Shown: positions 7,327-52,928, counted from the first letter of the stretch. The stretch is 64,000 bases of DNA from an uncultured Chloroflexota bacterium (GCA_937120965.1 CAKZKA010000267.1:1556-65555); one strand, 5' to 3'. A program made the numbers and translations. Notes: generated by a model not told the origin, from the sequence alone.

Positions 7327-7394
7327 ACAGGGGAAACCGGGCAATCCCACACCCCACCTCGAGACAATGGTCGGAGTCCACCTGTAATGAGTGA

Positions 7395-7496
7395 TACCAA
7401 TTTCACTTGAACTCTCCGCAAGCAGCGTTGCGTCAAAGCGCACCTGGACGCCTTGCGCGACAATCTGCAATCCAAAATCTACAATCTGAAATGGTA
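7395..7496 (-). mobile_element. 102-bp MITE, subfamily B, flanked by a TGA/TGA duplication
   Basis: Ends TACCAATT...AAATGGTA. TSD TGA at 7392-7394 and 7497-7499. It is the reverse complement of the 17184 copy. It sits 17 nt upstream of the MFS start codon. Confidence 0.8.
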
Positions 7497-7513
7497 TGAG
7501 AAGGAGAACCTGC

Positions 7514-8863
7514 ATGACCGCCCCGACCGCGGCCGCGCCACCGATTGATGATCGCCGCGAACTCTTTGGCTGGTATTTCTACGACTGGGCCAACTCGGCC
7601 TTTTCAACCACCGTTGTCACCGTCTTTCTCGGGCCGTTTCTCACCTCCATCACCGAGGCCGCCGCCGACGAGCGCGGTCTGGTCTACCCCCTCGGCATCC
7701 CCGTCGCTGCTGGCGCGTTCTTCCCCTACATGGTCTCGCTCTCGGTCCTGCTCCAGGTCTTCTTTCTGCCAATCCTGGGCGCCATCGCCGACTATTCTCA
7801 CGCCAAGAAGGGCATGCTCGCGACCTTCGCCTACATCGGGGCAGTTGCGACATTGTTGATGTACTTCCTGGACGGCAACCGCTACTTCCTCGGCGGGCTG
7901 CTGTTCCTTATCGCCAATCTCTCCTTCGGCGCGTCCATCGTTTTTTACAACGCCTTCCTGCCCGAAATCTCCAGCCCCGACCGGCGCGACGCGGTCTCGT
8001 CGCGCGGCTGGGCCATGGGCTACCTGGGCGGCGGCCTGCTCTTGCTTGCCAATCTGATCCTGTTCAGCAACCGTGAGGCCCTGGGCCTGCCGACCAACCT
8101 GGCCGTGCGTATCAGTCTGACCTCGGCAGGGCTGTGGTGGGCGATCTTTACCATCATTCCTCTGCTCACCCTGCGTCGCCGGGAGCCATTGAAGCGTCTT
8201 CCGCCGGGCGAGCATTACCTGACCGTCGGCTTCAAACAACTGGCGCACACCTTCAGCCAGATGCGCCACTACCCGCAGACACTGTTGTTCCTGGGGGCCT
8301 ACCTGCTCTACAATGACGGCATCCAGGCTGTCATCGCCCTGGCCTCACAGTTCGGAGCGCAGGAACTGGGTCTGGATCAGGGCATTCTCATCCAGGCGAT
8401 CTTGATGGTGCAGTTCGTGGCCTTCTTCGGAGCCCTGGCCTTTGGCTGGGTGGCACAGCGCATCGGCTCGAAGCGCGCCATTTTTCTGAGCCTGGTCATC
8501 TGGGGCGGGGCGGTGGTGTACGGCTACTTTATGCCGGCAGGCGTGCCCGCGCAATTCTTCCTGCTAGCCGGGGTGATCGCCGTGGTGCTGGGCGGCAGCC
8601 AGGCCATCAGCCGCTCGGTCTTCTCACTGATGATCCCGAAGGGCCAGGAAGCCGAGTACTTTGGCATCTACGAGGTAAGCGAGCGAGGGACGAGCTGGCT
8701 GGCGCCCTTTCTCTTCGGGCTGGCCTACCAGTTCACCAGCAGCTACCGCATCGCGATCATCTCGCTGATCATTTTCTTTGTGGCCGGATTCGCCCTGCTG
8801 CTCTTTGTGGATGTGCGGCGGGCCGCCGAGGCGGCGGGCAATGTGGCCCCGGCGAACGCATAG
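7514..8863 (+). CDS. MFS transporter, UMF1/Atg22-like family
   Basis: ATG at 7514 lies 7 nt after AAGGAGA. ELFGWYFYDWANSAFSTTVVTVFLGPFL is the characteristic N-terminus of this family. About 12 TM segments. Confidence 0.75.
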   Translation: MTAPTAAAPPIDDRRELFGWYFYDWANSAFSTTVVTVFLGPFLTSITEAAADERGLVYPLGIPVAAGAFFPYMVSLSVLLQVFFLPILGAIADYSHAKKGMLATFAYIGAVATLLMYFLDGNRYFLGGLLFLIANLSFGASIVFYNAFLPEISSPDRRDAVSSRGWAMGYLGGGLLLLANLILFSNREALGLPTNLAVRISLTSAGLWWAIFTIIPLLTLRRREPLKRLPPGEHYLTVGFKQLAHTFSQMRHYPQTLLFLGAYLLYNDGIQAVIALASQFGAQELGLDQGILIQAILMVQFVAFFGALAFGWVAQRIGSKRAIFLSLVIWGGAVVYGYFMPAGVPAQFFLLAGVIAVVLGGSQAISRSVFSLMIPKGQEAEYFGIYEVSERGTSWLAPFLFGLAYQFTSSYRIAIISLIIFFVAGFALLLFVDVRRAAEAAGNVAPANA

Positions 8864-8926
8864 GAGGGGTCAGGTGCGGTGAGGGTATGCGTGGCGCGGG
8901 GAACGCTGAAGCTTCCCCTTCTCCGT

Positions 8927-9187
8927 TCAGCGGCGCGGCGGGCGCCGCCGCTGCCCCCTGGCGCCACGCTCGACCATTGTCTGCCAGGCCGCATCAGGGT
9001 CAGGAGGACGGGCGAGGATCTGGTCGCTTACGCGGTGGGCCTGGGCATCGTTGAGTGAGGCCAGTTCCCGTTCGCGCTCCTCAACTTCAGGGTTCAACCG
9101 CGCATACTCTCGCCAGAGCCGCCAGAGCAGGGCAACCAGACCAACCAGCGCCAGCGCGGTCAGACCGAAGAGCAGGTAGAGCGTCAT
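8927..9187 (-). CDS. Small single-pass membrane protein (86 aa), translationally coupled to the response regulator
   Basis: Its ATG overlaps the regulator stop (ATGA at 9184-9187). N-terminal TM helix LLFGLTALALVGLVALLW followed by a charged tail. Confidence 0.45.
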   Translation of the reverse strand: MTLYLLFGLTALALVGLVALLWRLWREYARLNPEVEERERELASLNDAQAHRVSDQILARPPDPDAAWQTMVERGARGQRRRPPRR

Positions 9188-9813
9188 CGACGCCCCTCCT
9201 GGCGCTGCTTGAAGAAAATACCCGCAGCCTCGGTGCGGTTGCTCACGCCGAGTTTCTGATAAATATTCTGCAGGTGAAACTTGACCGTATTCTCGCTAAC
9301 GTTGAGGCGCTGGGCGATCTGCGTATTGGTCAGCCCCTGGGCCACCAGCGAGAGCACTTCGGCCTCGCGCTCGGAGAGATCGGCGGCGGGGCCGGGACGC
9401 TGCCGGTGCTGGCGCAACCAGCGGCGGGCCGCCTGGGGAAAGACCAGTTGCCCCTGATAGACCTGGCGGATGCAGGCCACCGTCTGCTGAGGCGGCTCGG
9501 TCTTGAGGGCGAAGCCATCAGCTTCGGCTTCGAGGGCCGACTGGATGGTATCGCCATCGTAGAACGCCGAGAGCACCAGCACCTTGGCCGGCAGTCCTTC
9601 GGCGCGAATACGCTGCAAACACTCAATGCCGCTGACCGTGGGCATCTGCAAATCGAGCACCACCACATCGGGTCGCAACGCGCGCACCGCGTCAAGCACC
9701 TGGTCACCATCGTTGGCGGTGCCAACCACCTCAATATCGCCCTCGGCCTCGATCAGCGAGCGCAGCCCCTCCAGCACCAGAGCGTGATCATCGGCAAGAA
9801 AAACTCTAATCAT
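9184..9813 (-). CDS. NarL/FixJ-family response regulator (REC + LuxR HTH)
   Basis: MIRVFLADDHALVLEGL...DVVVLDLQMP receiver domain. C-terminal LSEREAEVLSLVAQGLTNTQIAQRLNVSENTVKFHLQNIYQKLGV. The start at 9813 overlaps the kinase stop by 8 nt. Confidence 0.85.
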   Translation of the reverse strand: MIRVFLADDHALVLEGLRSLIEAEGDIEVVGTANDGDQVLDAVRALRPDVVVLDLQMPTVSGIECLQRIRAEGLPAKVLVLSAFYDGDTIQSALEAEADGFALKTEPPQQTVACIRQVYQGQLVFPQAARRWLRQHRQRPGPAADLSEREAEVLSLVAQGLTNTQIAQRLNVSENTVKFHLQNIYQKLGVSNRTEAAGIFFKQRQEGRR

Positions 9814-10498
9814 TTCTCGCGTATGGCACATCAACCCGCACCCGGGTGCCCAGACCAGGGGTGCTCTCGATGCTAAAGCTCCCGCCCAGCAGGTGCACTC
9901 GCTCGCGCATCCCCTCCAGTCCGAAGTGACCGGCCAGGGGTTGCTGCATCACGGCGGCAACATCGAACCCGCAGCCATCATCGCATACCTGCATCACGAT
10001 CCTGCGCCCATCACAGCTCAGGGTGACGCTATGGTGCCGGGCATGCCCGTGGCGCGCGGCGTTCGAGAGAGCCTCTTGCAAAATCCGGTACAGAGAGATT
10101 TTAACTGGTAGCGGCACTGTTGGCAACTCGCCAAGGATCTCCAGACTGACCGGGTTGCCGGTCAGTTCCTCGTGCTGGATCACCAGCCCTTCGAGGATGG
10201 AGACCAGGTCGCGGCGCTCGAACTCAGGGGGGCGAAATGCGCCCATAAAGTTGCGGATCTCGTTGAGCGCATTCTCCAGCAACCCGATACTGCGCCTGAT
10301 CCGCAGCAGTTCATCGTTGAGCGCCGACTGCTGCGCCAGCCGCCGTTGTACCACGTATAACTGGGATAATGCGGCGAAAATATTCTGAACCGGACCATCG
10401 TGAATGTCGAGGATGATCCGGCCCACTTCGCGCTCAGCGATCTCAAGGAACCGCCCGGAGGCCTCTGTGTTCCCGTTGTCCGGTTGAGTGCTTGTCAT
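9806..10498 (-). CDS. Cytoplasmic sensor histidine kinase (HisKA_3 + HATPase_c), no TM or sensor domain
   Basis: H-box DIHDGPVQNIF, N-box LQEALSNAARHG, G-boxes DDGCGF and GHFGLEGMRERV. Only 230 aa. Confidence 0.8.
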   Translation of the reverse strand: MTSTQPDNGNTEASGRFLEIAEREVGRIILDIHDGPVQNIFAALSQLYVVQRRLAQQSALNDELLRIRRSIGLLENALNEIRNFMGAFRPPEFERRDLVSILEGLVIQHEELTGNPVSLEILGELPTVPLPVKISLYRILQEALSNAARHGHARHHSVTLSCDGRRIVMQVCDDGCGFDVAAVMQQPLAGHFGLEGMRERVHLLGGSFSIESTPGLGTRVRVDVPYARND

Positions 10499-10611
10499 GG
10501 CTGCGCCGCCTTTCCAGACATGTGGGCATATTATACACCCCGCCGGAATGCGACAACACAGGTCCCTGCGGTCCCTCAGAGTAATGATTTCTTAACTGAC
10601 CTTCCACTTCC

Positions 10612-10700
10612 CGGTGCGAACATATGGGGACCCCGGGGTTCCCCACGGCCCCTCGCTGAGAGGAGGGTTTGGGAGGGCGCAGCCCTCCCAGGAGCATCTT
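10612..10700 (+). repeat. GAACAT motif, palindrome variant and one H unit
   Basis: GCGAACATATGGGGACCCCGGGGTTCCCC (palindrome at 10627-10645), then GGAGGGTTTGGGAGGGCGCAGCCCTCCCAGGA. Confidence 0.75.
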
Positions 10701-10816
10701 TCCCGCTTCGGAAGAAGAAGGGGGCTGGAGGGTGAGGGCGCACGGCTGCTACGGTCCTCCTGCCGCGCTCCGGAAAACTCTACCCTTGAGAGCATCCCCA
10801 CACCTCCAACCTCCCC

Positions 10817-12388
10817 TCAGCGCACCTCCACACCCAGGCGTCCGAGCAGCACCTTGTAGGGATCGGGATTATCGGGGTGCCACTCGAAACGCGCGCGCTC
10901 GAACCACTGCACGGTCAGCGCCCGCCCCTCGATGGTCTCGGTCTGCGCTTCGCTGAGAGGCAGGCCGAAGAGGGCGATGCTCTCCGCCAGGCTGTAACCG
11001 CGCCGCCCGTCAAACTCCAGACCTCGGGCGCGGTAGTAGCTCAGAAACGGCTCGCAGAGACTGAAACCGGTTTCGGCGAAGGAGAGGCAACCGGCAGGCG
11101 CGGCGCCGGCCCGGCCCGACTGGCGCCAATCGCGGCCCTGGCGCGCCAGCCCCTCGGCGCCGAGGCGCCCGAGCAGCACATCGTAGGGCCGCTGGTTCTG
11201 CGGGTGCAGCTCCAGGCGGTTACGCTCAAACTCCTGGGCCTGCACCTCGCGCCCCTCGATGCTCATGCTGCGCTGCGGGCCGATGGGCAGCCCGAAGACC
11301 GGCAGGCCCCCGTGCTCGCGCCAGTACTCCAGCATGCGCCCGCAGACCTGGTGGCCCGTTTCCGGGAAGGTCTGGCACTGCGCCGGAGCCGGTTGCGGCG
11401 GGGGCGCGGCCTGGCCCACCTCGCGGCGGAAGCGGTCGCTCAACTCGCGGGTCAGGCGCAGGTAGAGGTCGCCATACTGCTCACTCGGTTCGATGTGGCT
11501 GCCCTCGTAGAACTCGTTGAAGCTGGTCAGCACTACCGCCTGGGCATTGCGTTCGATGGCCGTCTGCCAGGTGCTCCGGTAGTACTCGCCGTTCTGGCGG
11601 TCGCGGGCGTGGCCGCCACGGATGCGCAGGTCGTCGTAGCCCGGCATCACCGTGGCCACAAAGGGCCGGTTCTGGCCGTTGGCGCGGTTCCACTGGTCGA
11701 GCCGGCTCGCATACGAGGCCATGGCCGCGCCGGGACGGCGCTCCCAACTGATGTCGAAGTAGTACAGCGCGTCGTAGACCTCCAGATAGCTGAAGGTGTC
11801 GGTGCCGCCAAACCAGAACTGCTCGCGCCCCGGATCGGCGCGGTTCCGCAACTCGCGCCATGCCCCAACCCCTCCCAGCGCGGGCGGGTTGAACCAGAAC
11901 ACCACCGGACGGCCCTGGTAGCGCAGGTAGTTCGGCTGGCCGAAAAAGTCGCGCTTCAGCACATCAATCGCCCGCGTCAGGCTCTCAACGCTCCGCAGGG
12001 CGCTCCATGCCGAATGGTCGGGGATGATCGCCACCTGGAGGTCGCGACCCCCTTCACGGGCCAGTTCGATTAAGCGGCGGCAGCGCTTGTTCAGTCGGTC
12101 CTCGTCGGGGCCATACCAGGTGCAGACCAGGGCATCAATGCCCGCGTCGTCGGCCTGCTGCACATGGCGGCGGATGGCCTCCTCGTCGCCGCCACTGTAA
12201 CGCGGTGACGGCAGATCGCTCATCCGGCTGTACGACCAGTCTGATTGCTCCCACCACGGGTAGTAGAAGGCCATGATCGGCCGCTCAGTGGCCGCCCGCG
12301 CCGGAGCGACCGGGGGGATCATCAGGCCAGCCAGGATCACCAGGATCAGAAGTGGCCCGAGTCGTCGCAGGTGACGGTAATAAAGCAT
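10817..12388 (-). CDS. Secreted glycoside hydrolase-like protein (GH99-like catalytic region) with two C-terminal ~75-aa repeat modules
   Basis: ATG at 12388 after AGGAGGAG. Signal-like MLYYRHLRRLGPLLILVILAGLMIPPVAPARA. AFYYPWW and VLTSFNEFYEGSHIEPS resemble GH99 motifs. The C-terminus has 2 x FxETG...FGLP...FERxRxEhHP..P..VLLGRLG. Confidence 0.55.
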   Translation of the reverse strand: MLYYRHLRRLGPLLILVILAGLMIPPVAPARAATERPIMAFYYPWWEQSDWSYSRMSDLPSPRYSGGDEEAIRRHVQQADDAGIDALVCTWYGPDEDRLNKRCRRLIELAREGGRDLQVAIIPDHSAWSALRSVESLTRAIDVLKRDFFGQPNYLRYQGRPVVFWFNPPALGGVGAWRELRNRADPGREQFWFGGTDTFSYLEVYDALYYFDISWERRPGAAMASYASRLDQWNRANGQNRPFVATVMPGYDDLRIRGGHARDRQNGEYYRSTWQTAIERNAQAVVLTSFNEFYEGSHIEPSEQYGDLYLRLTRELSDRFRREVGQAAPPPQPAPAQCQTFPETGHQVCGRMLEYWREHGGLPVFGLPIGPQRSMSIEGREVQAQEFERNRLELHPQNQRPYDVLLGRLGAEGLARQGRDWRQSGRAGAAPAGCLSFAETGFSLCEPFLSYYRARGLEFDGRRGYSLAESIALFGLPLSEAQTETIEGRALTVQWFERARFEWHPDNPDPYKVLLGRLGVEVR

Positions 12389-12503
12389 ACTGCTCCTCCT
12401 GGGGAACGCGCCGGATCTGGCGTGGTATTCGCCTGAGCGGCGCGGCCCGTAGGTCTCGGCAGGCATGTTTCAGCCTGATCGGTCGTGGAGGTGTAGCGCG
12501 CAG

Positions 12504-12610
12504 GTGTTCACTCCTGGGGTAAGGCGTCACCCCGGGTGCGCGGGCGTCCCGCCCGCAATGGCCTGGATGCGGGTAAGATGCCCGCGTACCCCGGAGAAGT
12601 GTGAACACGT
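12504..12610 (+). repeat. R1 element copy 2
   Basis: Nearly identical to copy 1 over about 100 nt, with the same GTGTTCAC...GTGTGAACAC ends. Confidence 0.75.
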
Positions 12611-12829
12611 GCGTGCAGCGCTGCGGTGCCCCCCGCCCCCCACTCCAGTGAACCCGTTCCCATCCCGGGCATTCTACTCTCTTCGGTCTCCGCAGGCAGT
12701 AGCCCTTCGGTCCTGTTCGCAGGGGGTAGCCAGCCTGCTGCCCCCTGCCCATCGAGGCGCCAGGCGCCCCCATCACCGGTTGGGGGATGCGGCTGCTGGA
12801 TTGGCGCGCCTCCCCGGAAGAGTCAAGCA

Positions 12830-13185
12830 CACCATTCGCATTCGTTTATTCGTTTCCCATTCGTTGGCGTATTTCGTTTCCCCTGAGGTGAAAATATGGG
12901 GAAATCGGGTTTCCCCACCCCCCTCCCTGCGGGGAGGCGCCCGGTTCCCTCCCCCAGCGGGGGAGGGCCAGGGAGGGGGCGGCCCTCCCGAAGACGCCCT
13001 ATGTTCATCGCGGCGTTGTGCGCCATGCGTATGACCGTCTAAGATGAAAACGGGTTTTTCTCAGGAGGGCGTAGAGGCGCGGCGCCGCCGCGCCTCTACG
13101 CCCAAACCCTCCCGCGCGCGGGCTATGTTCACGCTGGACGCCCATGCGCGGGGCGCACAACGCCAGCATGCAACCGTGGGAGGGC
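12830..13185 (+). repeat. Composite repeat block
   Basis: ACGAAT-rich module at 12830-12867. CTGAGGTGAAAAT. Palindrome at 12898-12916. About 110-bp module GGCGCCCGGTTCCCTCCCCCAGCGGGGGAGGGCCAGGGAGGGGGCGGCCCTCCC...CGGCGTTGTGCGCC. A 17-bp-stem hairpin at 13067-13103. ATGTTCAC. Confidence 0.85.
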
Positions 13186-13188
13186 TAA

Positions 13189-13290
13189 TACCAATTACCG
13201 TTGATGATACCGCATTGCTTGAAGCGGTTTTAGGCGTTATGCTGCCCAGCGTGGCAATCCACAATCCAAAATCCAAAATCTAAAATGGTA
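13189..13290 (-). mobile_element. 102-bp MITE, subfamily A, flanked by a TAA/TAA duplication
   Basis: Ends TACCAATT...AAAATGGTA. TSD TAA at 13186-13188 and 13291-13293. It is inserted in the loop of a GGGAGGGGG/GCCCTCCC repeat hairpin. Confidence 0.8.
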
Positions 13291-13293
13291 TAA

Positions 13294-13455
13294 CCCCCTC
13301 CCTGACCCTCCCCCGCTGGGGGAGGGAACCGGGCGCCTCCCCACCGGCAGGGGGTTGGGGCAACCCGGTTTCCCCGGTTCCCAACCGCTGGTGGGAGCGG
13401 CTGGCGCCCCACCGGCAGGGGGTTGGGGCAACCCGGTTTCCCCATATGTTCGCAT
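13294..13455 (-). repeat. Composite repeat block with two palindromes
   Basis: Remainder of the GGGGGAGGG module. Palindromes GGGGCAACCCGGTTTCCCC at 13357-13375 and 13425-13443, separated by the CCAACCGCTGGTGGGAGCGGCTGG hairpin. ATATGTTCGCATCAG. Confidence 0.85.
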
Positions 13456-13564
13456 CAGGGTGCGTTACCGCGGACCGCGCGCATACGCTACCGGCGCGCT
13501 GACCAGCGCCGATCTGCGGTATGATAGAATGAGCAATCGCCAGACAGACCAGCAGGAGACCCCC

Positions 13565-14200
13565 ATGCTTACCGACCGCGCCCGTGAGACGCTCTACGCC
13601 TGGGTCGCCGCCGATAGCCTGCGCAAACACTGCGAGGCCGTGTCGGCCTGCATGGTCCACTTCGCCCGGCAGGGCGGCGCGGACGCCGACCTGTGGGGCG
13701 CCGTGGGCCTGCTCCACGATATGGACTTTGAGCGCTACCCTGATATGCCTGAGGAAACCCCCGCGGTGCATGCGCTGTCACACGCCCTTGTCGCCGGCGA
13801 ACCGGTACCCGAAACGCTACCAGGGCACCCCTTCTATGGCGTGAAGTATCTGCGCGATAGCGGCTGGTCGCCTGAGGTGCTGCGGGCCATTCTCAGCCAC
13901 GCCGATTACAGCGGCATTGCCCCCGAGTCACCCCTGGAGCGCACCCTGTACGCCGTGGATGAACTGAGCGGCTTCGTGACCGCCGTGGCCCTGGTGCGCC
14001 CGGACAGGTCCATCCACAGCGTTGAGGTCGCCTCAGTGAAGAAGAAGATGAAGGACAAGGCGTTTGCGGCCAAAGTGAGCCGCGAGGGTATTCGTCACGG
14101 CGCGGAGGTCATCGGTATGCCACTCGATGACCTGATCGCCGAAGTCATCGCTGCGTTGCGCGCCGCGGCGCCGCGCCTGGGGTTGCAGGGCACGCCTTGA
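13565..14200 (+). CDS. HD-domain metal-dependent phosphohydrolase
   Basis: ATG at 13565 lies 8 nt after AGGAG. Contains LLHDMDFERYPD (HD motif). An alternative ATG is at 13529. The track ORF start at 13355 lies in repeats. Confidence 0.65.
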   Translation: MLTDRARETLYAWVAADSLRKHCEAVSACMVHFARQGGADADLWGAVGLLHDMDFERYPDMPEETPAVHALSHALVAGEPVPETLPGHPFYGVKYLRDSGWSPEVLRAILSHADYSGIAPESPLERTLYAVDELSGFVTAVALVRPDRSIHSVEVASVKKKMKDKAFAAKVSREGIRHGAEVIGMPLDDLIAEVIAALRAAAPRLGLQGTP

Positions 14201-17165: not shown

Positions 17166-17183
17166 GCGACGCTGGATGATTGA

Positions 17184-17285
17184 TACCATTTCAGATTGTA
17201 GATTTTGGATTGCAGATTGTCGCGCAAGGCGTCCAGGTACGCTTTGACGCAACGCTGCTTGCGGAGTGTTCAAGTGAAATTGGTA
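17184..17285 (+). mobile_element. 102-bp MITE, subfamily B, flanked by a TGA/TGA duplication
   Basis: Ends TACCATTT...AAATTGGTA. TSD TGA at 17181-17183 and 17286-17288. Confidence 0.8.
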
Positions 17286-17451
17286 TGACGCCTCTGCGTC
17301 TCCACAGCGTGCCTGACCGTATTGTCATCTACCGCGAGCCAGCGGCCCAACACGTTCCTGCGCTCAACATGGCTCAGCCCGGCGCACCGTGAGCGGGCCA
17401 GACAGGCGGAGTCCAGTGATGCCAGATTATCATATCGTTATCTGATACAAC

Positions 17452-17480
17452 TTCGCATGCGCAAAAGCTCTAGCTATAAT
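17452..17480 (+). promoter_or_regulatory. Sigma70-like promoter candidate (TTCGCA-17-TATAAT) for the FG-GAP gene
   Basis: -35 at 17452-17457, 17-nt spacer, perfect TATAAT at 17475-17480. It lies 65 nt upstream of the GTG start. Confidence 0.45.
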
Positions 17481-17544
17481 AGCCGCAGTTTTCCCGTGCA
17501 GCCTGGTTCCGTTGGTTTGCTCCGGTTCGCCAAGGAGGAACCCG

Positions 17545-18239
17545 GTGTTTATCGCCCTATCACGCGTGGCGCCGACACACCCCGGTTTCGGCCTGCGACG
17601 CCTGGCCCTGGTCATGCTCCTGACCCTGTCGTTGCTGCCCCTGCTGACCGTCGCCCTCTTCAGGCCAACGCCTGTCCTCCGCCCGCGACCCTCGGGGAAC
17701 GGCGCGCCGATGGCGCCTGCGTCTACAAGGCCAGCAACGCCCAGGCAGAGGATCTCTTCGGCACTTCCACCGCCGTCTCCGGCGATACCGTTGTCGTTGG
17801 CGCGCCCTACGAGGACGGTAGCGGCCCCATGCCGAACGAAAACGCCACCAACGCTGGCGCCGCCTACGTGTTCCTCAGCGACGACATCGCGCCCAGCGTG
17901 ACGGTCGAGCAGGCCGCGGGGCAACCCGACCCGGCCAGCGCCGGCCCCATCCTGTTCACCGCTACCTTCAGTGAGCCGATCAATCCCAGCACCTTCACCG
18001 CCACTGACGTGGCCCTTGGCGGCACGGCGGGCGGGACGCTCAGCGCCAGCCTCACCCCGGTAAACGCCACCACCTTCACCATCGCCGTCAGCGGCATGCG
18101 TAGCGCCGGAACGGTCACGGCCAGCATCCCCGCCGGGGCCGTCACCGACCCGCTGGGCAATCCCAACCTCGCCTCCACCAGCGCCGACAACAGCGTGACG
18201 TTTGAGTACCGGGTACTACTACCGCTGATCGTGAGGTAG
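17545..18239 (+). pseudogene. Secreted FG-GAP/Ig-like repeat protein interrupted by a 1-nt frameshift near 17660
   Basis: AAGGAGG is followed 5 nt later by GTG at 17545. This opens a classic signal peptide (MFIALSRVAPTHPGFGLRRLALVMLLTLSLLPLLTVALF) in the frame of ORF 17512..17901. The FG-GAP-like body (DLFGTSTAVSGDTVVVGAPYEDG...GAAYVF) is in the frame of ORF 17322..18239. Adding 1 nt at about 17660 would join them as ...TVALFQANACPPP. Confidence 0.6.
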
Positions 18240-33193: not shown

Positions 33194-35127
<1,934 letters not shown>

Positions 35128-35131
<4 letters not shown>

Positions 35132-35625
35132 GGTGAACATAGCCCGCCCGCGGGAGGGTTTGGGAGGGCAAAGCCCTCCCAGGAAACAACCCGCCAGCGG
35201 GGAGGGTTTGGGAGGGCGAAGCCCTTCAACGGGTTTCACCTGCTCCGGGATAGGCTTCCTGGGACGCAGAGGGGAGATGGGCCAACGAATGGGAAACGAA
35301 TAAACGAATGCGAGCGGCGTGTCTGACTCTGAGGTGAACATAGCCCACCCACGGGAGGGTTTGGGAGGGCGAATTCCTCCCAGGAACCAACCCGCCAGCG
35401 GGGAAGGTTTGGGAGGGCGAATTCCTCCCAGGAACCAACCCGCCAGCGGGGAAGGTTTGGGAGGGCGAAGCCCTCCCAAGAACAATACTATGTTCATTCT
35501 GGCGTTGTGCGGCACAGCCGCATGGACGGATGATGTGAACATACGGGGAAACCGGGTTTCCCCACCTGCGGTGAGCCTGTCGAACCGCACCCCTGCCAGT
35601 GGGGAGGGTTTGCGAGGGCGCAGTC
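35128..35625 (+). repeat. About 500 bp of repeats filling the nuoL-nuoM spacer
   Basis: Two CTGAGGTGAACATAGCCC heads (35128, 35329). Five H units, two with a GAATTC loop. ACGAAT-rich module at 35282-35313. GGCGTTGTGCGGCACAGCCGCATGG module. Perfect palindrome at 35545-35563. CTGCGGTGAGCCTGTCGAACCGC module. One degenerate H unit. Confidence 0.9.
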
Positions 35626-37371: not shown

Positions 37372-37482
37372 TACCATTGCGACCATCTACGATTTTAGAT
37401 TTTGGATTGTGGATTGCCACGCTGGGCAGCGCAACGCCTGAAACCGCTTCAAGCAATGCGGTATCATCAACGGTAATTGATA
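37372..37482 (+). mobile_element. Degenerate MITE copy, subfamily A (111 bp), between nuoM and nuoN
   Basis: TACCATTGCG...GATTTTAGATTTTGGATTGTGGATTGCCACGCTGGGCAGC...GGTAATTGATA. The ends are mutated and no TSD is recognisable. It ends 20 nt before the nuoN ATG. Confidence 0.65.
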
Positions 37483-43170: not shown

Positions 43171-43337
43171 ATACCAATTCTGCTTGATGGCATCGCACCG
43201 GCTCAGCTCCACAACGGCCTGTGTGGCGATGGAGCGCAGCGGAGATGCGCCGAACAATGCGGTGTCGCCAGCTCTATCTGGTCTGGATGGCGCCGCGGGC
43301 GCACCGGTCTCCGACTCACCCGCGGCGCCGCCTGCGT

Positions 43338-45461: not shown

Positions 45462-46061
45462 GAGCGTGAGGGCGCGTTCCAGCTTGCTGCGCGGCTCAGG
45501 CGTCAGCGCGACGAGTGCGGCCAGTTCACCAGCCAGGGCGCTGAGATCGGCAGTTGTGCCGGCCTCACACAGTTCAATCTCCACCTCGGTGAAAGGTCGC
45601 TCGCGCGCATTGGCCCGCATCACGCCGCGATCGAGACAGAGCTCGGCAACCGGGGCGCCCTCCCGCGTGATGTGCAGCACGCGCCGCTCGGTGCGGATCG
45701 CCACGCGGGGGAGCAGAGGCGCGCCAGCGGTAAGGGCGAGCGCCAGGTCCCGCGCGACGCCGGGGGGCCAGGTTTCCGGATCCGGATTGGCGCCGGGGAA
45801 CTCGAACTCGGCCCGGCGATGCACCCCGTCATCGCTGACGTCGGCAGGCCCCTTGAGGGTGATCAACGAGCGTTCGCCGGTGCGCCGCACCCGCAGGCCA
45901 TGGCGCGCCGCCGCGAGCCGTCCATCGGCGGTGTCGTAGTAGACGTTTTCTTGCATTTCCGGGACCGGCTCCGGCGTGACCACGTAAGGGCCCAACTGCT
46001 TGAGCGAGGCGAGGGTCTCCAGGTCAGCGCTGCTTACAACGTATTTTGCTTCAATCTCCAT
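45459..46061 (-). CDS. CYTH-domain protein (triphosphate tunnel metalloenzyme)
   Basis: MEIEAKYVV is the ExExK signature. 200 aa. LRVRRTGERSLITLKGP. Confidence 0.75.
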   Translation of the reverse strand: MEIEAKYVVSSADLETLASLKQLGPYVVTPEPVPEMQENVYYDTADGRLAAARHGLRVRRTGERSLITLKGPADVSDDGVHRRAEFEFPGANPDPETWPPGVARDLALALTAGAPLLPRVAIRTERRVLHITREGAPVAELCLDRGVMRANARERPFTEVEIELCEAGTTADLSALAGELAALVALTPEPRSKLERALTL

Positions 46062-46065
46062 TGCT

Positions 46066-46692
46066 TTGTTCGCGGAAACCGGGGTTTCCCGTACTACTCC
46101 CTGCCCGGCGGGAGGGTTGCGAGCGTTCTGTCCTCTTCCAGCCCTCTGCTGGGGGAATGCGCCTGACTCCCTCTCCAGGCGGGGGAGGGTCCGGGAAGGC
46201 GAAGCCCTCCCAGGAGAATCGCTCTTCAGTCATCCATGCGGCTGCGCCGCACAACGACAAGATGAACATGGATTTTTCCTGGGAGGGCGCAGCCCTCCCA
46301 AACCCTCCCCGCTGGCGGGTTGGTTCCTGGGAGGGCTGCGCCCTCTCAAGCCCTCCCGCGGGCAGGCTATTTTCACCTCAGGCACCATTCGCGGGGCGCA
46401 CAACGCCGCGATGACCATAGGGCGTCTTCGGAAGGGCCGCCCCCTCCCTGGCCCTCCCCCGCTGGGGGAGGGAACCGGGCGCCTCCCCGCAGGGAGGGGA
46501 TTGGGGAAACCTGGGTTCCCCGTATGTTCACCTCAGGCGGTCATGCGCATGGCGCACAACGCCGCGATGACCATGGGGCGTCTTTGGGAGGGCCGCCCCC
46601 TCCCTGGCCCTCCCCCGCTAGGGGAGGGAACCGGCCTCCTCCCCGCAGGCAGGGGAATGGGGAAACCCGGTTTCCCCGTATTTTCACCTCAG
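46066..46692 (-). repeat. Composite repeat block including two tandem ~156-bp units
   Basis: Degenerate palindrome at 46072-46090 and two reverse-oriented H units at 46270-46360. Tandem units at 46381-46535 and 46536-46692 each consist of the GGGGGAGGG module, a palindrome (46503-46521 and 46659-46677) and (T)ATGTTCACCTCAG. Confidence 0.85.
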
Positions 46693-46944
46693 TCCTGTCA
46701 TACGGGGCGCGGCCGTAAGAATATCTATCAGGATACCATATTTTCCTGAATCAGGATCGAAACAGCGTTTCCGCGACAGAGCCGTTGCAACGTCGCCGGG
46801 GCAAGCCTCGAACCGGAAACCGCGCGTGGAGGCGGCTACACCGCCTCAAACCCTGGCGTCGGAGGCAGATCTGCAACCGCCCCGGGTTCCGGGAGGGCCG
46901 TGCCCTCCCGGACCAGCTTTTGAAGAACGCGCCGGACGCATGCC

Positions 46945-48663
46945 TCAGCGAGCAGGCGAAGCAGCCCCGGCGAAGGCGCGAAACTGCCCGATCACCCCGT
47001 CCGGATCAGACGCCGCGCGAGTAGTCGCGGTGACGCTGAAGTAGACATCCACCCGCGCGCCACTGGCTTTGCCACGGAAGTGAACTCCGTAGACACCGGG
47101 CAGTGAGTCGGGCTGGATCTGGAGGTCGAGGGGCGGGCTGTAGCCAATGCGCCCCTGGGCATCGGCAACGGGGTTATCGGGGAACAGCACGTAGGTCCCC
47201 GACGGGTCGGTGATCCAGAACTCAAGAGGCTCGCCAGGACGCAGACCTTCGCCGCGGATCTGCACGACACCGCCTGGTCGGGCCTCGGCTGGCGTGGCGC
47301 TGCCGCGATTATTGCCGGGCAGCGGCGTCCCCGGTCCCGCCACAAAATCGCGGGTCAGGCTGAAGGCCGCGGCCACGGTCACGCCACTGTTCCGGCCGCG
47401 GGCCACCGCCGAGTAGATGCCCTCAGGCAGCCCGCTGGTGGCCACGCTAACCTGGGCCGTGGTCCCATCACGGCGCACCCGGGCGGGATCGATGGGCGCG
47501 GAGCGACCGGTCGGCCCGGTGATCCAGGCGCTCACCTCTTCGCCGGACTGGAAGCCGCGAGCCAGGAGGACAAAGGTTGCGCCGGGGGGCGCGGCGACCG
47601 GAATGATGAACCCATCGCCCTGCCGGCCGAGCAAGTCGTGTGCAACGCGGCCCAGTCGGCCGGGATCGCCCGGGGGCGTGACGCGGGTAACGCGGAAGTA
47701 GCCAACCGCCTCGCGCCCGCTACTGACGCCGCGGGCATTGAACGACCAGAGACCTTCGAGCGCATTCTGGGGGGCGGTAAAATTGATATTCTCGCCTTCG
47801 ATTGTACCCCGGTTGTCGGCAGTGGCCTGGAAGCCAGTGCCAAAGGTCGCCTGGTCGGGTGCAGTGACCCAGATCCCCACGCGCTCGCCGGCGAGGAAGC
47901 CGCTGGCGACGAACAGGAAGGTCGTGCCGGGCGGCCCGATCTCCGGGGTTACCCGGGCATTAATGCTGGGCGGGAGCGGCGGGAGCGGGGTCGGCATGGG
48001 CGCCGGAGGTGTGGCAGTGGTACCCGGGGGCGGCGCGGGTGCCTGGCGCTCCGGGGGCGCCAACCGGCGCCCCAGGGTACTGATCAATACCCGGCGTCCC
48101 GGAGGAAACTCAGGCCAGTACTCGAAGCGCGCCTTTTCGAAGTACTGCACGGTGTGCCAGCGACCGCTTTCGAGCTGCTCCTGGATCTCATTGCTGATGG
48201 GGAAGCCGAAAATACGCTCGGCGCCGCGGGTCTCCCAGATCTCCTTGAAGCCGTACTGGATGATGGTCTGAGTCTGAGGAATGTAGCGGCGGTCAGCGGT
48301 ATTCTGGATAGGGGGCGATTTGGGGAAGATCCGCCCCTGCGTGATTTCCAGACCCAGGTTCCCCAGTTCCACCACGGGGGTGCTACCGCCCTGGGCCAGT
48401 TCAAAACGCGCCCGCTCGAACCACTGCGTGATACGACCATTGGGACCGGTAAACTCCTCGGTGATGGGAAAGCCGAAGATCTCAACCCCGCCATTGGCTT
48501 CCCAGAAAACGCGAAAGGCCCCGCGCAGGGTATGCTGGGTCTCGGGGAAGTAGCGCACATCGGATTGGGCCCGGAGCGCGGGTAGGCTCCCCAGCAGCAG
48601 GGCGAGCGCCAGCACCATCCCCGCCAGGAGCGTAGCCAAACGGCGTAGCGGTTGTGCAGCCAT
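46945..48663 (-). CDS. Secreted repeat protein (2 N-terminal FERARFE-type modules, Pro-rich linker, 3 Ig-like ~95-aa repeats)
   Basis: Signal-like MAAQPLRRLATLLAGMVLALALLLGSLPALRAQ. Modules are FPETQHTLRGAF..FGFPITEE..WFERARFEL and IPQTQ..FGFPISNE..YFEKARFEYWP. Three internal repeats have the pattern G..F....GF..GE.V..W.T.P. Confidence 0.6.
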   Translation of the reverse strand: MAAQPLRRLATLLAGMVLALALLLGSLPALRAQSDVRYFPETQHTLRGAFRVFWEANGGVEIFGFPITEEFTGPNGRITQWFERARFELAQGGSTPVVELGNLGLEITQGRIFPKSPPIQNTADRRYIPQTQTIIQYGFKEIWETRGAERIFGFPISNEIQEQLESGRWHTVQYFEKARFEYWPEFPPGRRVLISTLGRRLAPPERQAPAPPPGTTATPPAPMPTPLPPLPPSINARVTPEIGPPGTTFLFVASGFLAGERVGIWVTAPDQATFGTGFQATADNRGTIEGENINFTAPQNALEGLWSFNARGVSSGREAVGYFRVTRVTPPGDPGRLGRVAHDLLGRQGDGFIIPVAAPPGATFVLLARGFQSGEEVSAWITGPTGRSAPIDPARVRRDGTTAQVSVATSGLPEGIYSAVARGRNSGVTVAAAFSLTRDFVAGPGTPLPGNNRGSATPAEARPGGVVQIRGEGLRPGEPLEFWITDPSGTYVLFPDNPVADAQGRIGYSPPLDLQIQPDSLPGVYGVHFRGKASGARVDVYFSVTATTRAASDPDGVIGQFRAFAGAASPAR

Positions 48664-48874
48664 GCGGTCCTCCTTCTATCAGGCGCGGTTCCAGAGACGG
48701 GGGTCAACCGTGGCGGGGGTAGCCCGCAGGCGCGCCCGGGTATCCGCAAGGTGATCCCGTGAAGACCAGCGAGGTGAACCACAGTGTCGCGTGTCACTTT
48801 ACGGGTGATCCGCGATCATGGGCTTTATCATAGTCTTTTTTCATGCGATCTGTCAAGCGTGTATGTAGAGGTGG

Positions 48875-49089
48875 GTGTTCACATTTGGGGTAATACCATT
48901 TTGGATTTTAGATTTTGGATTGTGGATTGCCACGCTGGGCAGCACAACGCCTGAAATCGCTTCAGGCAATGCGGCATCATCAACGGTAATTGGTATAAGG
49001 CGTCAACCCGGGTGCGCGGGCGTCCCGCCTGCAATGGCCTGGAATGCGGGCAAGATGCCCGCGCTCCCAGGAGAAGTGTGAATACGTAC
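48875..49089 (+). repeat. R1 element copy 3, interrupted by a MITE
   Basis: Left part is 48875-48893 and right part 48996-49089. They are collinear with copies 1 and 2 once the 102-bp insertion is removed. Confidence 0.8.
48894..48995 (+). mobile_element. 102-bp MITE, subfamily A, flanked by TAA/TAA, nested inside the R1 element
   Basis: TSD TAA at 48891-48893 and 48996-48998. Removing the element plus one TAA restores GGGGTAAGGCGTCA, the sequence seen in uninterrupted R1 copies at 566-579 and 12517-12530. Confidence 0.85.
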
Positions 49090-49099
49090 ATGTGGAGCC

Positions 49100-49265
49100 C
49101 TCAAGGGCTGACAGGATGCGCACGGGTTTTTTTCCCTGAGAGGGCTGCGCCCGCCCAGACTCCTCCCTCGGAGAGGGGTATGGAGAAATCCGGGTTCCCC
49201 ATACTCTGACATGATAGAGACAGTTTTTTGGGGGAGGGCTTGGCCCTGCCAAACCCTCCCGCGCG
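49100..49265. repeat. Degenerate palindrome and H-like hairpin upstream of comEC
   Basis: GGAGAAATCCGGGTTCCCC (49182-49200), then GGGGGAGGGCTTGGCCCTGCCAAACCCTCCC. Confidence 0.6.
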
Positions 49266-49330
49266 GGGTGCCGTATCCCGGGGCATGTCCAGGCGGTGTA
49301 TGGGACGAGAGGCAGGCTCCGGAGGGAGAG

Positions 49331-50824
49331 ATGCTTATTCGTCTGGCAATCGCCTGGATGCTGGGGATCGTCATTGCCGAGCAGGCCCGCCCCCCAACGG
49401 GCTGGCTGTGGGCTGCGGCGGGGGTGGGGCTGGTCATGGCGCTGGCCGTCCGGGGTCAGCAGCGAGGCACACTACGCCTGGCGGCCCTCGCGCTGCTGTG
49501 CGCGGCTCTGGGCGGGCTACGCTACATGGGCACGCTGCCGGCCCTGGGGCCGCAGAGCGTGAGCAGCCTGAGCGGGCGGGGCGAGGTCGTGCTCACGGGC
49601 AGCGTGGCCGGCGAGCCACGCCGCAGTGAGGAGCAGCAGCGCGTGGTGCTCCAGGTCGAGACGGCCACGGTAGAGGGAGCGACCGCGGCCTACGAGGGGC
49701 TGGTGCTGGTGGTATTACCGCCCTACCCTGCCTATGCCTACGGCGATCGGCTCGAGGTTCGGGGCGCGTTGCGCCGTCCGCGGGGCGCAGAGCGGCCCGG
49801 CGAGTTCGATTACCGGGCCTACCTGGCCCATCGCGGCATCTTTGTGATGATGACCAAACCCGAAGAGGCGCGCCGGCTGACGGGCCAGGACGGTCTGGCG
49901 CCCTTGCGGGCCGTGCTTGCCTTTCGCGCTCATTGCCAGGCGGTGCTGCTGCGCACCTTGCCCGAACCCCAGGCCGCCCTGGCAATCGGGGTCGTTCTTG
50001 GCATTCAGTCAAGCATCCCCGACGAAGTGTACCGAACCTTTTCGATCACCGGTACGAGCCATATCCTGGTAGTATCGGGATGGAACTTCACGATTGTGGC
50101 GGGGATGCTGGGAGCGCTGGCGGCACGCCTGCGCCTGGGGCGAGGGGCAACCCTGGCGCTGGCGCTGGCGGTGATGTGGGTCTATGCCGTGTTTACCGGC
50201 GCCTCGGCGGCGGTGCTACGGGCGGCAGCCATGGCCAGCCTGGCCGCCGTGGCCCGCGCCACCGACCGCAGCAGCGAGCCGTGGCATCTGCTCCTCGGCG
50301 CGTGCTGGCTGATCACTCTGGCAGACCCACACACGCTCTGGGACCCGGGGTTCCAGCTCTCGGCGCTGGCAACGGCCAGCCTCTTCGCCTACGCCACGCC
50401 GGTGGCGGCGTGGTTTAACCGGCGGCCCTTCAACTGGCCGATGATGGCTCCGGTCACAGAGGCACTGGTGGCAACATTCGCTGCCCAGGCGCTCACCCTG
50501 CCGCTGATCTTATACGCCTTTGGCAACCTCTCGCTGGTGGCGCCACTGGCGAATATCGTGATCGTGCCGGTGGTGCCATTCGCTATGGCTCTGGGCGCAC
50601 TGGCGCTGGTAGGCGGCCTGATCTGGCTCCCGTTGGGGCAGTGGCTGGCCCTGGGGGCATGGCTGCCCTTCACCTGGATCGCCGAGGGGGCGCGCCTTCT
50701 GGCCATGCCACGCTGGGCCAGCGCGCAGGTGCCACCATTCCCGCTGTGGCTGCTCCTGGGTTGCTATGCCGCCATCGGGCTGCACTGGTGGAGCAGGCTA
50801 CGCACCGCGGGAGAGAGCGCCTGA
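49331..50824 (+). CDS. comEC: ComEC/Rec2-family DNA internalisation channel protein (no beta-lactamase domain)
   Basis: ATG at 49331 after GGAGGGAG. Polytopic membrane protein. FSITGTSHILVVSGWNFTIV resembles the competence-domain motif. The stop TGA is embedded in CTGAGGTGAACAT. Confidence 0.7.
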   Translation: MLIRLAIAWMLGIVIAEQARPPTGWLWAAAGVGLVMALAVRGQQRGTLRLAALALLCAALGGLRYMGTLPALGPQSVSSLSGRGEVVLTGSVAGEPRRSEEQQRVVLQVETATVEGATAAYEGLVLVVLPPYPAYAYGDRLEVRGALRRPRGAERPGEFDYRAYLAHRGIFVMMTKPEEARRLTGQDGLAPLRAVLAFRAHCQAVLLRTLPEPQAALAIGVVLGIQSSIPDEVYRTFSITGTSHILVVSGWNFTIVAGMLGALAARLRLGRGATLALALAVMWVYAVFTGASAAVLRAAAMASLAAVARATDRSSEPWHLLLGACWLITLADPHTLWDPGFQLSALATASLFAYATPVAAWFNRRPFNWPMMAPVTEALVATFAAQALTLPLILYAFGNLSLVAPLANIVIVPVVPFAMALGALALVGGLIWLPLGQWLALGAWLPFTWIAEGARLLAMPRWASAQVPPFPLWLLLGCYAAIGLHWWSRLRTAGESA

Positions 50825-51165
50825 GGTGAACATACGGGGAAACCAGGTTTCCCCATCCCCCTCCCCGAGGGGAGGGTTTGGGAGGGCTTCGCCCTCCCGA
50901 GAATAATTATTTTCATTCCGGCGTTGTGCGGCGCAGCCGCATGTGAGGTGAACATACGGGGAAACCGGGTTTCCCCATCCCCCTCCCTGCGGGGAGGGTT
51001 TGGGAGGGCTTCGCCCTCCCGAGAATAATTATTTTCATTCCGGCGTTGTGCGGCGCAGCCGCATGGATGACTGAGGTGAACATAGGGGGAAACCGGGTTT
51101 CCCCATACCCCCGCCCACGGGAACGTGAACATATGGGGCAACCGGGTTTCCCCTCGCCCCCTCCC
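50821..51165 (+). repeat. Tandem composite units (periods 122 and 128 bp) downstream of comEC
   Basis: GGTGAACAT heads at 50825, 50947, 51075 and 51125. Palindromes at 50836-50854, 50958-50976, 51086-51104 and 51135-51153. The first two units are near-identical through GGGAGGGCTTCGCCCTCCCGAGAATAATTATTTTCATTCCGGCGTTGTGCGGCGCAGCCGCATG. Confidence 0.9.
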
Positions 51166-51230
51166 TGTGGGACGACAGGCCCCCGGAAGCACACTGCGTG
51201 GCGCGGGTATGCTATACTTGGCGCGCTGTG

Positions 51231-51776
51231 ATGACGAACGCGATCGATCTTACGCCATTGATCCAGGCCATTCACGCGGCGCCCCAACGCCTGGTGTATG
51301 TTTTCGCCGGAGCAGGGAGCCTGGCGCTGCACTGGCTTCACGCCGTCGCCGGCTCGTCGCGCACGCTGCTCGAGGCCCGCGATTGCTACGCGCCCCGCAG
51401 CCTGGCGGTCGTCCTTGGTGCGCCCCCGGCCCGTGCTGTCAGCGTCGAGACGGCCAGCGCAATGGCCGATTGGGCCTGGAAGTATGCCGCCAGCCTGGCC
51501 GAAGGCCCCTGGCCGCTGCTCGGGGTGGGTTGCACCGCGGCGATCGTCACCGACCGGGCGCGCCGGGGCGCCGATCGGGCGGTGGTCGCCGTGCGCTCGG
51601 CCAGCGCTACGCGGATCTATGAGCTGCTCCTCGCCAGGGAGCGCCGCGACCGGGCCGGCGAAGAGGCGCTGATCAGTCGCCTGGTCGTCCTGGCGATCGC
51701 CGAAGCATGCGGTCTGGGAGCAGTGCATCTGGACCTGGAGCCGGGTGAGGCGCTGCATCTGGCGGGGATGGGCTGA
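51231..51776 (+). CDS. Hypothetical protein, distant CinA/PncC-like pattern
   Basis: AGSSRTLL...AVSVETASAMA...GVGCTAAIVTDRARRG loosely follows the CinA C-terminal domain pattern. The start is uncertain (ATG 51231 or GTG 51198). The stop TGA is embedded in CTGAGGTGAACA. Confidence 0.4.
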   Translation: MTNAIDLTPLIQAIHAAPQRLVYVFAGAGSLALHWLHAVAGSSRTLLEARDCYAPRSLAVVLGAPPARAVSVETASAMADWAWKYAASLAEGPWPLLGVGCTAAIVTDRARRGADRAVVAVRSASATRIYELLLARERRDRAGEEALISRLVVLAIAEACGLGAVHLDLEPGEALHLAGMG

Positions 51777-51860
51777 GGTGAACAGAGGGGAAACCGGGTT
51801 TTCCCACCCGCGGTGAGCCTGTCGAACCGCGCCCTCCCGATGGGGCGGGTTCGGGAGGCC
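51773..51860 (+). repeat. Terminal motif, palindrome and GGTGAGCCTGTCGAACCGC module
   Basis: CTGAGGTGAACAGA, GGGGAAACCGGGTTTTCCC (51787-51805), ACCCGCGGTGAGCCTGTCGAACCGCGCCCTCCC. Confidence 0.8.
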
Positions 51861-52089
51861 GCAGTCATCCCCGGAAAGATCCGGTTCATTCCAGTGATAC
51901 GTGACGAAGGCGCATTGACGCCTGGCAGTGGAGCACCTGCAACCTGTGCCTGAACGCGATACCGAACCGACAAAAAGCCCGGATACCCCTATAGGGTCTG
52001 CCCTGCAACCTGCGCCTGAACGCGATACCGAACCGGAGGGTGTCCCCATCCCTCCTGCGGAGCGTGACCCGTTCCCGATTGACGAGGTC

Positions 52090-52719
52090 ATGGCTACCCT
52101 CCGCGCGACTATGCCGGCGTTTCAACGGCCGCTGATCGACCAGATGGGGGTGGAAGGGACCACCCCGTTCCGGGTGCTCATCGCGACCATTCTCAGTCTG
52201 CGCACGAAGGACACGCTTACCGCCGTGGTCGCTCCGCGCCTCTTTGCCGCTGCGGATACGCCGGAGGCGATGCTTGCGCTCGGTGAGGAGCGCATTGCCG
52301 AACTGATCTACCCGGTCGGTTTTTACCGGAACAAGGCGCGGAGCATTGTGCAGATCTGTCGTGTGCTGATCGAACGCTACGGCGGCGCGGTGCCGGCTGA
52401 CCTCGACGCGCTGCTGGAGCTGCCTGGCGTGGGGCGCAAAACGGCCAACCTCGTGCGTACCGCCGGCTTTGGCCTGCCCGGTATCTGCGTTGACATCCAC
52501 GTGCACCGGATCTGCAACCGCTGGGGCTATGTGCAGACGAAGAACCCCGACGAGACGGAGCAGGCGCTGCGGGCGATACTTCCGCCTCAGTACTGGATCG
52601 AGATCAACGGTCTGCTGGTGACCCTGGGGCAGAATATCTGCCTGCCGGTGTCGCCGCGCTGTTCAGTGTGCCCGGTGGCAGCGACCTGCGCCCGTGTCGG
52701 CGTGACGCGGAGCCGGTAA
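52090..52719 (+). CDS. nth: Endonuclease III (HhH-GPD, 4Fe-4S)
   Basis: LELPGVGRKTANLV helix-hairpin-helix and the CLPVSPRCSVCPVAATC cluster motif. Alternative GTG start at 51928 would add a 54-aa repeat-containing extension. Confidence 0.8.
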   Translation: MATLRATMPAFQRPLIDQMGVEGTTPFRVLIATILSLRTKDTLTAVVAPRLFAAADTPEAMLALGEERIAELIYPVGFYRNKARSIVQICRVLIERYGGAVPADLDALLELPGVGRKTANLVRTAGFGLPGICVDIHVHRICNRWGYVQTKNPDETEQALRAILPPQYWIEINGLLVTLGQNICLPVSPRCSVCPVAATCARVGVTRSR

Positions 52720-52794
52720 GGGCCTGGAGGGTATCGGTTGCACCACGAAGGCACGAAGATCGTGCGGATGGGCGGCGCGGACGTTTCCCTGTAA

Positions 52795-52896
52795 TACCAT
52801 TTTAGATTTTAGATTTTGGATTGTGGATTGCCACGCTGGGCAGCACAACGCTTAAAACCGCTTCAAGCAATGCGGCATTATCAACGGTAATTGGTG
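52795..52896 (+). mobile_element. 102-bp MITE, subfamily A, flanked by TAA/TAA
   Basis: TSD TAA at 52792-52794 and 52897-52899. The last TIR base is mutated (AATTGGTG). It lies between the convergent nth and GPH transporter genes. Confidence 0.8.
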
Positions 52897-52928
52897 TAAG
52901 TCAATGCTGCTTTTTCGCCTCCAGGTTG

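Follow-up and report, generated by a model that had tools for sequence, protein, structure and literature searches.

A recently active, TNA-inserting 102-bp element of filamentous phototrophic Chloroflexota, very probably a non-autonomous DNA transposon

A short repeat in a 64,000-nucleotide stretch of DNA from an uncultured Chloroflexota bacterium (GCA_937120965.1 CAKZKA010000267.1:1556-65555; the whole stretch is called the window here) is very probably a non-autonomous cut-and-paste DNA transposon, a MITE (miniature inverted-repeat transposable element) with a modal length of 102 bp that inserts at TNA and is likely moved in trans by a DDE transposase of the IS5/PIF-Harbinger type. The element is mobile and is flanked by a duplicated TNA, and its family is recently active, apparently undescribed, and resident in filamentous phototrophic Chloroflexota of the order Chloroflexales. 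An original prediction, made from the window, had proposed a candidate MITE with six copies in two subfamilies, A and B (copies A1-A4, B1 and B2; Table 1), and this proposal is upheld by terminal inverted repeats (TIRs), a non-coding body, a TNA target-site duplication (TSD) at 58 of 68 listed insertion sites, empty sites, identical copies, nested insertions and polymorphism between strains. All of the structural and behavioural features that define prokaryotic MITEs were found, bar an identified partner.

Insertion was seen directly by comparing filled and empty sites. Copy A2 lies within a copy of another repeat of ~125 bp, and an uninterrupted paralogue of this host repeat is present at 556-608 (+) of the window, with a single TAA at 569-571. 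The empty site reads ttcacatttggggTAAggcgtca, and the filled A2 site reads ttcacatttggggTAA followed by the 102-bp element and TAAggcgtca. Adjacent tandem units in contig L144 (loci outside the window are designated L plus a number) share a 77-nt flank with 100% identity, one having a single TGA (L144:88-164) and the other an element between two TGA triplets (L144:269). Since the empty sites hold a single TNA, the duplication is 3 bp long and a mis-assigned TA duplication is excluded. Copies are dispersed as well: four different loci hold the A2 sequence exactly, the window and its orthologue L164 being counted once, the L.E.CH-type sequence is present at three, and nested insertions, with an element in a TTA of another copy's left end, were found in L203 and L121. 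The related-strain contig L214, 88-98% identical to positions 46.9-54.5 kb of the window, keeps A3 and is without the entire composite of host repeat and A2; L164 has both, so that A3 is common to all three. Presence/absence polymorphism between strains, for which the original prediction had advised looking, is therefore real, and copies have not become fixed at orthologous positions. The ~125-bp host repeat (GTGTATGTAGAGG...TTCACATTTGGGGTAAGGCGTCA...GTGAATACGTACAT) was itself observed at 48859-49120 and 530-620 of the window and in L175, L206, L199, L147 and L202; as it is missing at the orthologous site in L214, it is probably another mobile element.

The left arm of the element is built from 7-nt units, and their core, GATTTTGGATTGTGGATTGCC, occurs seven times in the window with three or fewer mismatches, against 0.00 expected (100 shuffles). 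When one genome per species was scanned for the heptad core, at least 114 loci were found, most of which are unrelated heptamer arrays in many phyla. Among the matches listed, ten are full homologues of the element, all in filamentous phototrophic Chloroflexota, with hosts that include Ca. Chloroploca asiatica B7-9 (LYXE01), Chloroploca sp. Khr17 (RYFF01), Oscillochloris sp. ZM17-4 (JAIEWN01), a Roseiflexus metagenome-assembled genome (MAG) and MAG L.E.CH.39_1 (JACAEO01). The MAG behind Joint Genome Institute (JGI) 3300010288 / ENA OGCL01 carries the element too. Another 119 loci came from a scan of metagenomes in which TACCAT and three phased GATT units served as the anchor, and profile searches over the loci of both scans returned at least 88 near-full-length matches, representing at least 68 unique insertion sites once repeat assemblies of one locus were removed. 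The 68 sites listed, from Chloroploca, Oscillochloris, Roseiflexus and related MAGs, fall by sequence into about 18 subfamilies, with lengths of 102 bp (n = 49), 101 bp (n = 9) and 95 bp, one heptad fewer (n = 6). Identical trinucleotides flank 58 of these 68 sites, where the chance of matching 3-bp flanks is 1/64 per site, and in all 58 the triplet is T-N-A: TAA at 21, TTA at 17, TGA at 11 and TCA at 9 (TWA 38 versus TSA 20). The target has little sequence preference outside T-N-A. The flank duplication first noted in the window thus extends across the wider copy set.

Structurally, the element is small and non-coding, at 95-109 bp. Its TIRs (TACCATTT...AAWTGGTA) are short; of 15 subfamily representatives, 14-15 show pairing between the outermost 5 nt of the two ends. 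The left arm (approximately nt 1-36) keeps the register TACCATT-TWRGATT-TTGGATT-KYRGATT-G.., in which the terminal TIR heptad is a diverged unit of the same heptad array. The remaining ~65 nt on the right vary among subfamilies and retain only conserved islands (GC..CGCA.GGC, ATGCGG and TCAA). As had been predicted, subfamilies A and B share the TIR and the heptad end and differ elsewhere: identity is 86% for nt 1-36, drops to 41% for nt 37-94 and is 100% in the final 8 nt. One insertion site was recovered in two lengths, 109 bp at L180:2931 and 102 bp at L218:1950, the difference being one GATTGTG unit, so that, in addition, the heptad arm shows minisatellite-like slippage. The array is slippage-prone, and 7-nt units gained or lost give the 95-, 102- and 109-bp forms.

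Reading all six window intervals confirmed the positions and strands proposed for the copies, the exact 102-bp length of A1, A2, A3, B1 and B2, and the perfect 3-bp flanks of these five. Three details had been drawn too strictly. The 102-bp length is modal and not fixed, with the 95- and 109-bp variants one heptad off; the 8-bp TIR is present and imperfect, TACCATTT and TACCAATT matching at 7 of 8 positions; and the ends TACCAWTT and AAWTGGTA, proposed for all six copies, do not hold for the right end of A3 (AATTGGTG, with a final G in place of A, ...GGTG) or for the start (TACCATTG) and end (AATTGATA) of A4, while they hold for the rest. Copy A4 has flanks of GAA and TCA, and so no TSD; in the NADH dehydrogenase operon, it lies between two nuoM/N-type genes (Proton_antipo_M), and an identical A4 is carried by the JGI contig L115. 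The B2 insertion is also found in the related metagenome contig L198. A search of the window with a profile from 47 distinct elements detected only these six strong copies and, beyond them, two weak remnants. The G+C content of the element is 46-48% in a window of 65%.

Table 1. Copies and remnants of the element in the window, and related elements in cyanobacterial-type contigs (rc, reverse complement; TSD coordinates refer to the + strand)
Feature	Location	Strand	Length	Ends, flanks and remarks
Copy B1	7395-7496	-	102 bp	TIRs TACCATTT/AAATTGGTA; TSD TGA at 7392-7394 and 7497-7499
Copy A1	13189-13290	-	102 bp	TSD TAA at 13186-13188 and 13291-13293
Copy B2	17184-17285	+	102 bp	TSD TGA at 17181-17183 and 17286-17288
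Copy A4	37372-37482	+	111 bp	old and degenerate; left end rearranged
Right-end remnant, solo	43172-43229	-		...GCGATGCCATCAAGCAGAATTGGTA then TAA; without heptad arm; weak profile match, E=0.2
Copy A2	48894-48995	+	102 bp	TSD TAA at 48891-48893 and 48996-48998
Copy A3	52795-52896	+	102 bp	TSD TAA at 52792-52794 and 52897-52899
Probable very old copy, tentative	58048-58136	+		TGCCATTTCGG...TTCAATGCCAGTTGGTG then TAA; heptads eroded; weak profile match at 58052-58135 (+), E=0.09
Cyanobacterial-type element	L157:4590-4681		92 bp	
Cyanobacterial-type element	L191 (rc) 2960-3051		92 bp	
Cyanobacterial-type element	L227 (rc) 1208-1308		101 bp	

The six strong window copies are intergenic, lying between called genes. 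The idea that a TSD supplies the stop codon of a neighbouring gene was discarded, as tens to hundreds of bp separate the gene ends from the TSDs (for example, a gene end at 52719 and a TSD at 52792). Two copies elsewhere, L205:6800-6901 and L222:784-885, were observed inside long open reading frames (ORFs), close to their 3′ ends; the element plus its TSD measures 105 bp, or 35 codons, and in-frame read-through or altered C-termini are therefore possible. The expectation that the window would hold no transposase was borne out, with no transposase domain among 30 window ORFs compared with Pfam (22 non-transposase matches, 8 without a match) and no transposase among the genes called on a JGI contig that overlaps the window and bears the NADH dehydrogenase operon.

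As for mechanism, a transposase supplied in trans would recognise the ends and probably the heptad array too. The element would be excised or copied and then integrated at T-N-A, presumably through 3-nt staggered cuts, and repair of these cuts would produce the observed duplication of TNA. The IS5 subgroups IS1031, ISL2 and IS427 make 3-bp TNA-type duplications in the ISfinder scheme. The TNA specificity and 3-bp duplication of the element are as in these subgroups and in their eukaryotic relatives PIF/Harbinger/Nuwa, and the mobiliser is therefore most likely a DDE transposase of the IS5/PIF-Harbinger superfamily, an assignment drawn from the TSD, which has the 3-bp T-N-A or T-W-A form of that superfamily.

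Several observations weigh against a MITE moved by an enzyme of this kind. The search revealed no autonomous element bounded by TACCAWTT ends, and the window and 1.7 Mb of loci contained no pairs of such ends 115-6000 bp apart except two MITEs. Escherichia coli InsH, the IS5 transposase, used with phmmer as an approximate query, matched none of 6070 ORFs in the 1.7 Mb of loci. A scan of viral contigs gave 0 matches, and a BLAST search of plasmids matched only heptad arrays of Nostocales and unrelated Agrobacterium segments. Ten of the 68 sites listed are without a perfect duplication, mostly at degenerate or truncated copies. IS5-family elements typically begin with GG or GA, and the terminus of the present element, TACCATTT, with its initial TACC, looks unlike such ends. 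Finally, it is unusual for a transposase to recognise sites phased at 7 nt, as the putative binding sites are here.

Left ends followed by sequence other than the MITE proved to be truncated copies, copies interrupted by repeats, or heptad arrays beside housekeeping genes, and none of the candidates for a full-length element survived. The right end of a 1272-bp candidate in L129 falls within a histidine-kinase gene and is thus a chance match; the left ends in L137, L166, L234, L169, L117 and L210 run into housekeeping genes; and that in L036 is a remnant beside genes that are msrQ-like and msrP-like by their ORF sequences. A generic screen for TIR, TSD and ORF across all loci was too noisy for use. 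An apparent ORF in L197 is actually another MITE, different from the element and nested in it. This nested MITE (L197:4536-4659, also in L140 and L186) is ~120 bp long, has 11-bp TIRs (ATGGTCTTTGA...TCAAAGACCAT), and sits in a copy of the type seen in L116. An extra 1.7-kb segment in L198 was likewise rejected as an insertion sequence, being repeat-rich coding sequence instead. It spans L198:776-2505, corresponds to window position 17726, and adds ~1.7 kb of highly repetitive coding sequence to an FG-GAP-repeat gene (window 17322-18239) in a related strain; it reflects either repeat expansion or assembly collapse.

The strongest alternative keeps the MITE and changes the enzyme, invoking a transposase outside the IS5/PIF group such as IS630/Tc1-mariner, with a TA duplication, or IS3/IS30, with a non-specific 3-bp duplication. 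That no partner was found leaves room for another enzyme family, and members of the IS3 and IS30 families make duplications of 2-4 bp in ISfinder, which also counts for this alternative. The ends start with TA, as would be expected had a TA duplication been mis-assigned. The empty sites, however, hold exactly one TNA, and an additional TA is absent (ggggTAAggcg against ggggTAA(TACC...GGTA)TAAggcg), so the TA belongs to the element, and an origin from IS630/Tc1-mariner was rejected for want of any TA remnant. The T-N-A triplet in every perfect case among the sites listed indicates a sequence-specific target, which is not expected of IS3/IS30, and the ends of the element are not TG...CA. Taken together, a mobiliser from outside the IS5/PIF group is unlikely, though worth keeping in mind.

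Selection on a structured non-coding RNA or a regulatory module (a small RNA, an attenuator or a protein-binding array) could also hold a sequence at ~102 nt. The 102-bp length is indeed kept over about 18 subfamilies, among the sites listed, though their interiors are only ~40% identical; an internal imperfect palindrome, CGCA..../....TGCG, is paired in 78% of cells; both subfamilies have a sigma-70-like motif (GYGRCA-17-TAMAAT), on the strand complementary to the heptads, directed out of the left end; and 9 of 12 copies in tandem gene contexts face the downstream gene. Against this, RNAalifold gave terminal pairing and weak local hairpins for two alignments (-4 to -5 kcal/mol) with a covariation term of ~0, and the covariation score of a hand-drawn three-helix structure, with its 78% pairing, was reached by 137 of 500 shuffles. 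No Rfam family matched at the gathering threshold or at E<=10. A structured RNA family was rejected on these grounds, the covariation being no better than in shuffles and no Rfam family matching. The intergenic settings are even (convergent 12, divergent 10, tandem 12), and a regulatory role is unproven because the 9:3 orientation bias is not significant and convergent placement is equally frequent. As an RNA or regulatory module would also leave the TNA duplications and empty sites unexplained, this reading is quite improbable.

Palindromes of the repetitive extragenic palindrome (REP) or bacterial interspersed mosaic element (BIME) type, spread by a REP-associated tyrosine transposase (RAYT; IS200/IS605-type Y1), or site-specific recombination at a short core, might be suggested by intergenic regions full of other G+C-rich hairpin repeats, but this is scarcely credible: REPs are 20-40 bp hairpins without TIRs plus TSD, while the element has a 102-bp body of 46-48% G+C in a 65% G+C genome with both TIRs and a TSD, the insertion sites share only TNA, which excludes a long att core, and no RAYT gene flanked by element units was seen.

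The intergenic space of the window is saturated with these other repeats (for example at 1945-2269, 35095-35525, 58324-58505, 12883-13048, 46386-46692 and 50822-51173), with a tally of 46 direct families and 227 inverted pairs. Among these repeats are GGGGAAACCGGGTTTCCCC hairpins, GGGAGGGTTTGGGAGGGC...GCCCTCCC units, tandem arrays of ~48 nt, and composites of 120-200 nt in both orientations. A pair of 202-nt inverted repeats (58366-58567 and 59436-59637; 89% complementary), made of other repeat families, brackets eutC (58610-59449) and sets it apart from eutB (59643-61040).

Returning to the element and its heptads, arrays of GATTTTG, GATTGCG and GATTGTG identical to the left arm occur on Nostocales plasmids and in contigs of Acidobacteriota, Planctomycetota, Verrucomicrobiota and Desulfobacterota. 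The shared heptad units liken the element to STRR-type heptamer repeats of cyanobacteria and to heptamer hairpin arrays of other phyla. Most heptamer arrays differ from the element in lacking both TACCA...TGGTA ends and a TNA duplication, and in often being arranged as inverted pairs. In the collected loci, (GATTGCG, GATTTTG, GATTGTG, GATTGGG)n arrays were observed in L001-L114 and in many of L116-L234 (for example L009, L025, L171 and L125), in contigs labelled Acidobacteriota, Planctomycetota, Verrucomicrobiota, Desulfobacterota, Bacteroidota, Nitrospirota and cyanobacteria. Where two arrays are inverted, as is often the case, they would form long hairpins.

Three contigs, L157, L191 and L227, carry something closer to the element (Table 1). 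They are cyanobacterial, as judged from enrichment of the HIP1 octamer (G+C 38-44%). Their elements start with TACCATTTT and GATTTTR heptads, end with AAATGGTA or AATTGGTA, and are flanked by TAA, TCA or TGA. Those in L157 and L191 are bounded 92-bp elements with the left end and the TIR of the Chloroflexales element and with TNA flanks, and such elements were found in only a few cyanobacterial contigs. Their presence in HIP1-rich contigs suggests that the element family, or its parent, is also found in cyanobacteria, and the elements of 92-101 bp are possible cross-phylum relatives of the Chloroflexales element. A more speculative extension, with a slim chance of being right, is that TACCATTT plus (GATTNNN)n forms the recognition end of an uncatalogued transposon lineage common to Chloroflexales and mat cyanobacteria, whose transposase would read the heptad array and not a conventional long TIR. 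If so, cross-phylum horizontal transfer would be implied, and some of the GATTGCG/GATTTTG arrays found in other phyla would either be related to such elements or be their footprints.

These results add a well-supported, recently active MITE family to the Chloroflexota, for which no described family was found in the open literature. The clean TNA duplication gives a handle toward the responsible transposase, and the insertion polymorphisms can serve as strain markers for metagenomes of hot springs and mats. The 102-bp units, together with the other dense repeats in this genome, are flagged as a source of assembly breaks and of spuriously extended ORFs. The heptad arm offers a natural case of a minisatellite fused to a transposon end, and the cyanobacterial cousins raise a testable question on cross-phylum exchange. 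As a kind of element MITEs are well known, and the general concept of their function is unchanged.

Among known bacterial MITEs, the element resembles Correia (Neisseria), RUP (Streptococcus pneumoniae), Nezha (Nostocales) and Chunjie (Geobacter) in being of the order of 100-200 bp, non-coding, intergenic and multi-copy, with TIRs and direct repeats. Correia elements duplicate TA and Chunjie has 9-bp direct repeats (DRs), unlike the 3-bp TNA duplication seen here. All four form very stable hairpins, whereas the present element has an 8-bp TIR, no strong fold and no sequence similarity to them. The 9-bp DRs of Chunjie accompany 21-bp TIRs, and Nezha is 130-170 bp long (PMC3184786). Recent movement of classical bacterial MITEs is likewise visible in empty and filled sites (PMC3184786; PMC10969869). 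Chloroflexota have 0 mentions in a 2024 review of prokaryotic MITEs (PMC10969869), no reported MITE was found in the literature on Roseiflexus, Chloroflexus, Oscillochloris and Chloroploca, and searches of the literature for the heptad sequence strings found nothing relevant.

In its short TIRs and 3-bp T..A-framed duplication, the element is like Tourist-like MITEs and PIF-Harbinger (PHIS) and like the IS1031, ISL2 and IS427 subgroups of IS5. It differs from the PIF-Harbinger/IS5 group by its asymmetry, a 7-nt tandem array being confined to one arm. The TSD of PIF/Harbinger is TWA and the target of NuwaII is C-TNA-G (PMC4482050); unlike NuwaII, the element shows no such extended target. A MITE containing a minisatellite has been reported from Porphyromonas gingivalis (PMC4596501), with a tandem array within the MITE whose copy number varies among copies, as it does here. 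In the present element, by contrast, the unit is 7 nt and the array abuts and includes the terminal repeat.

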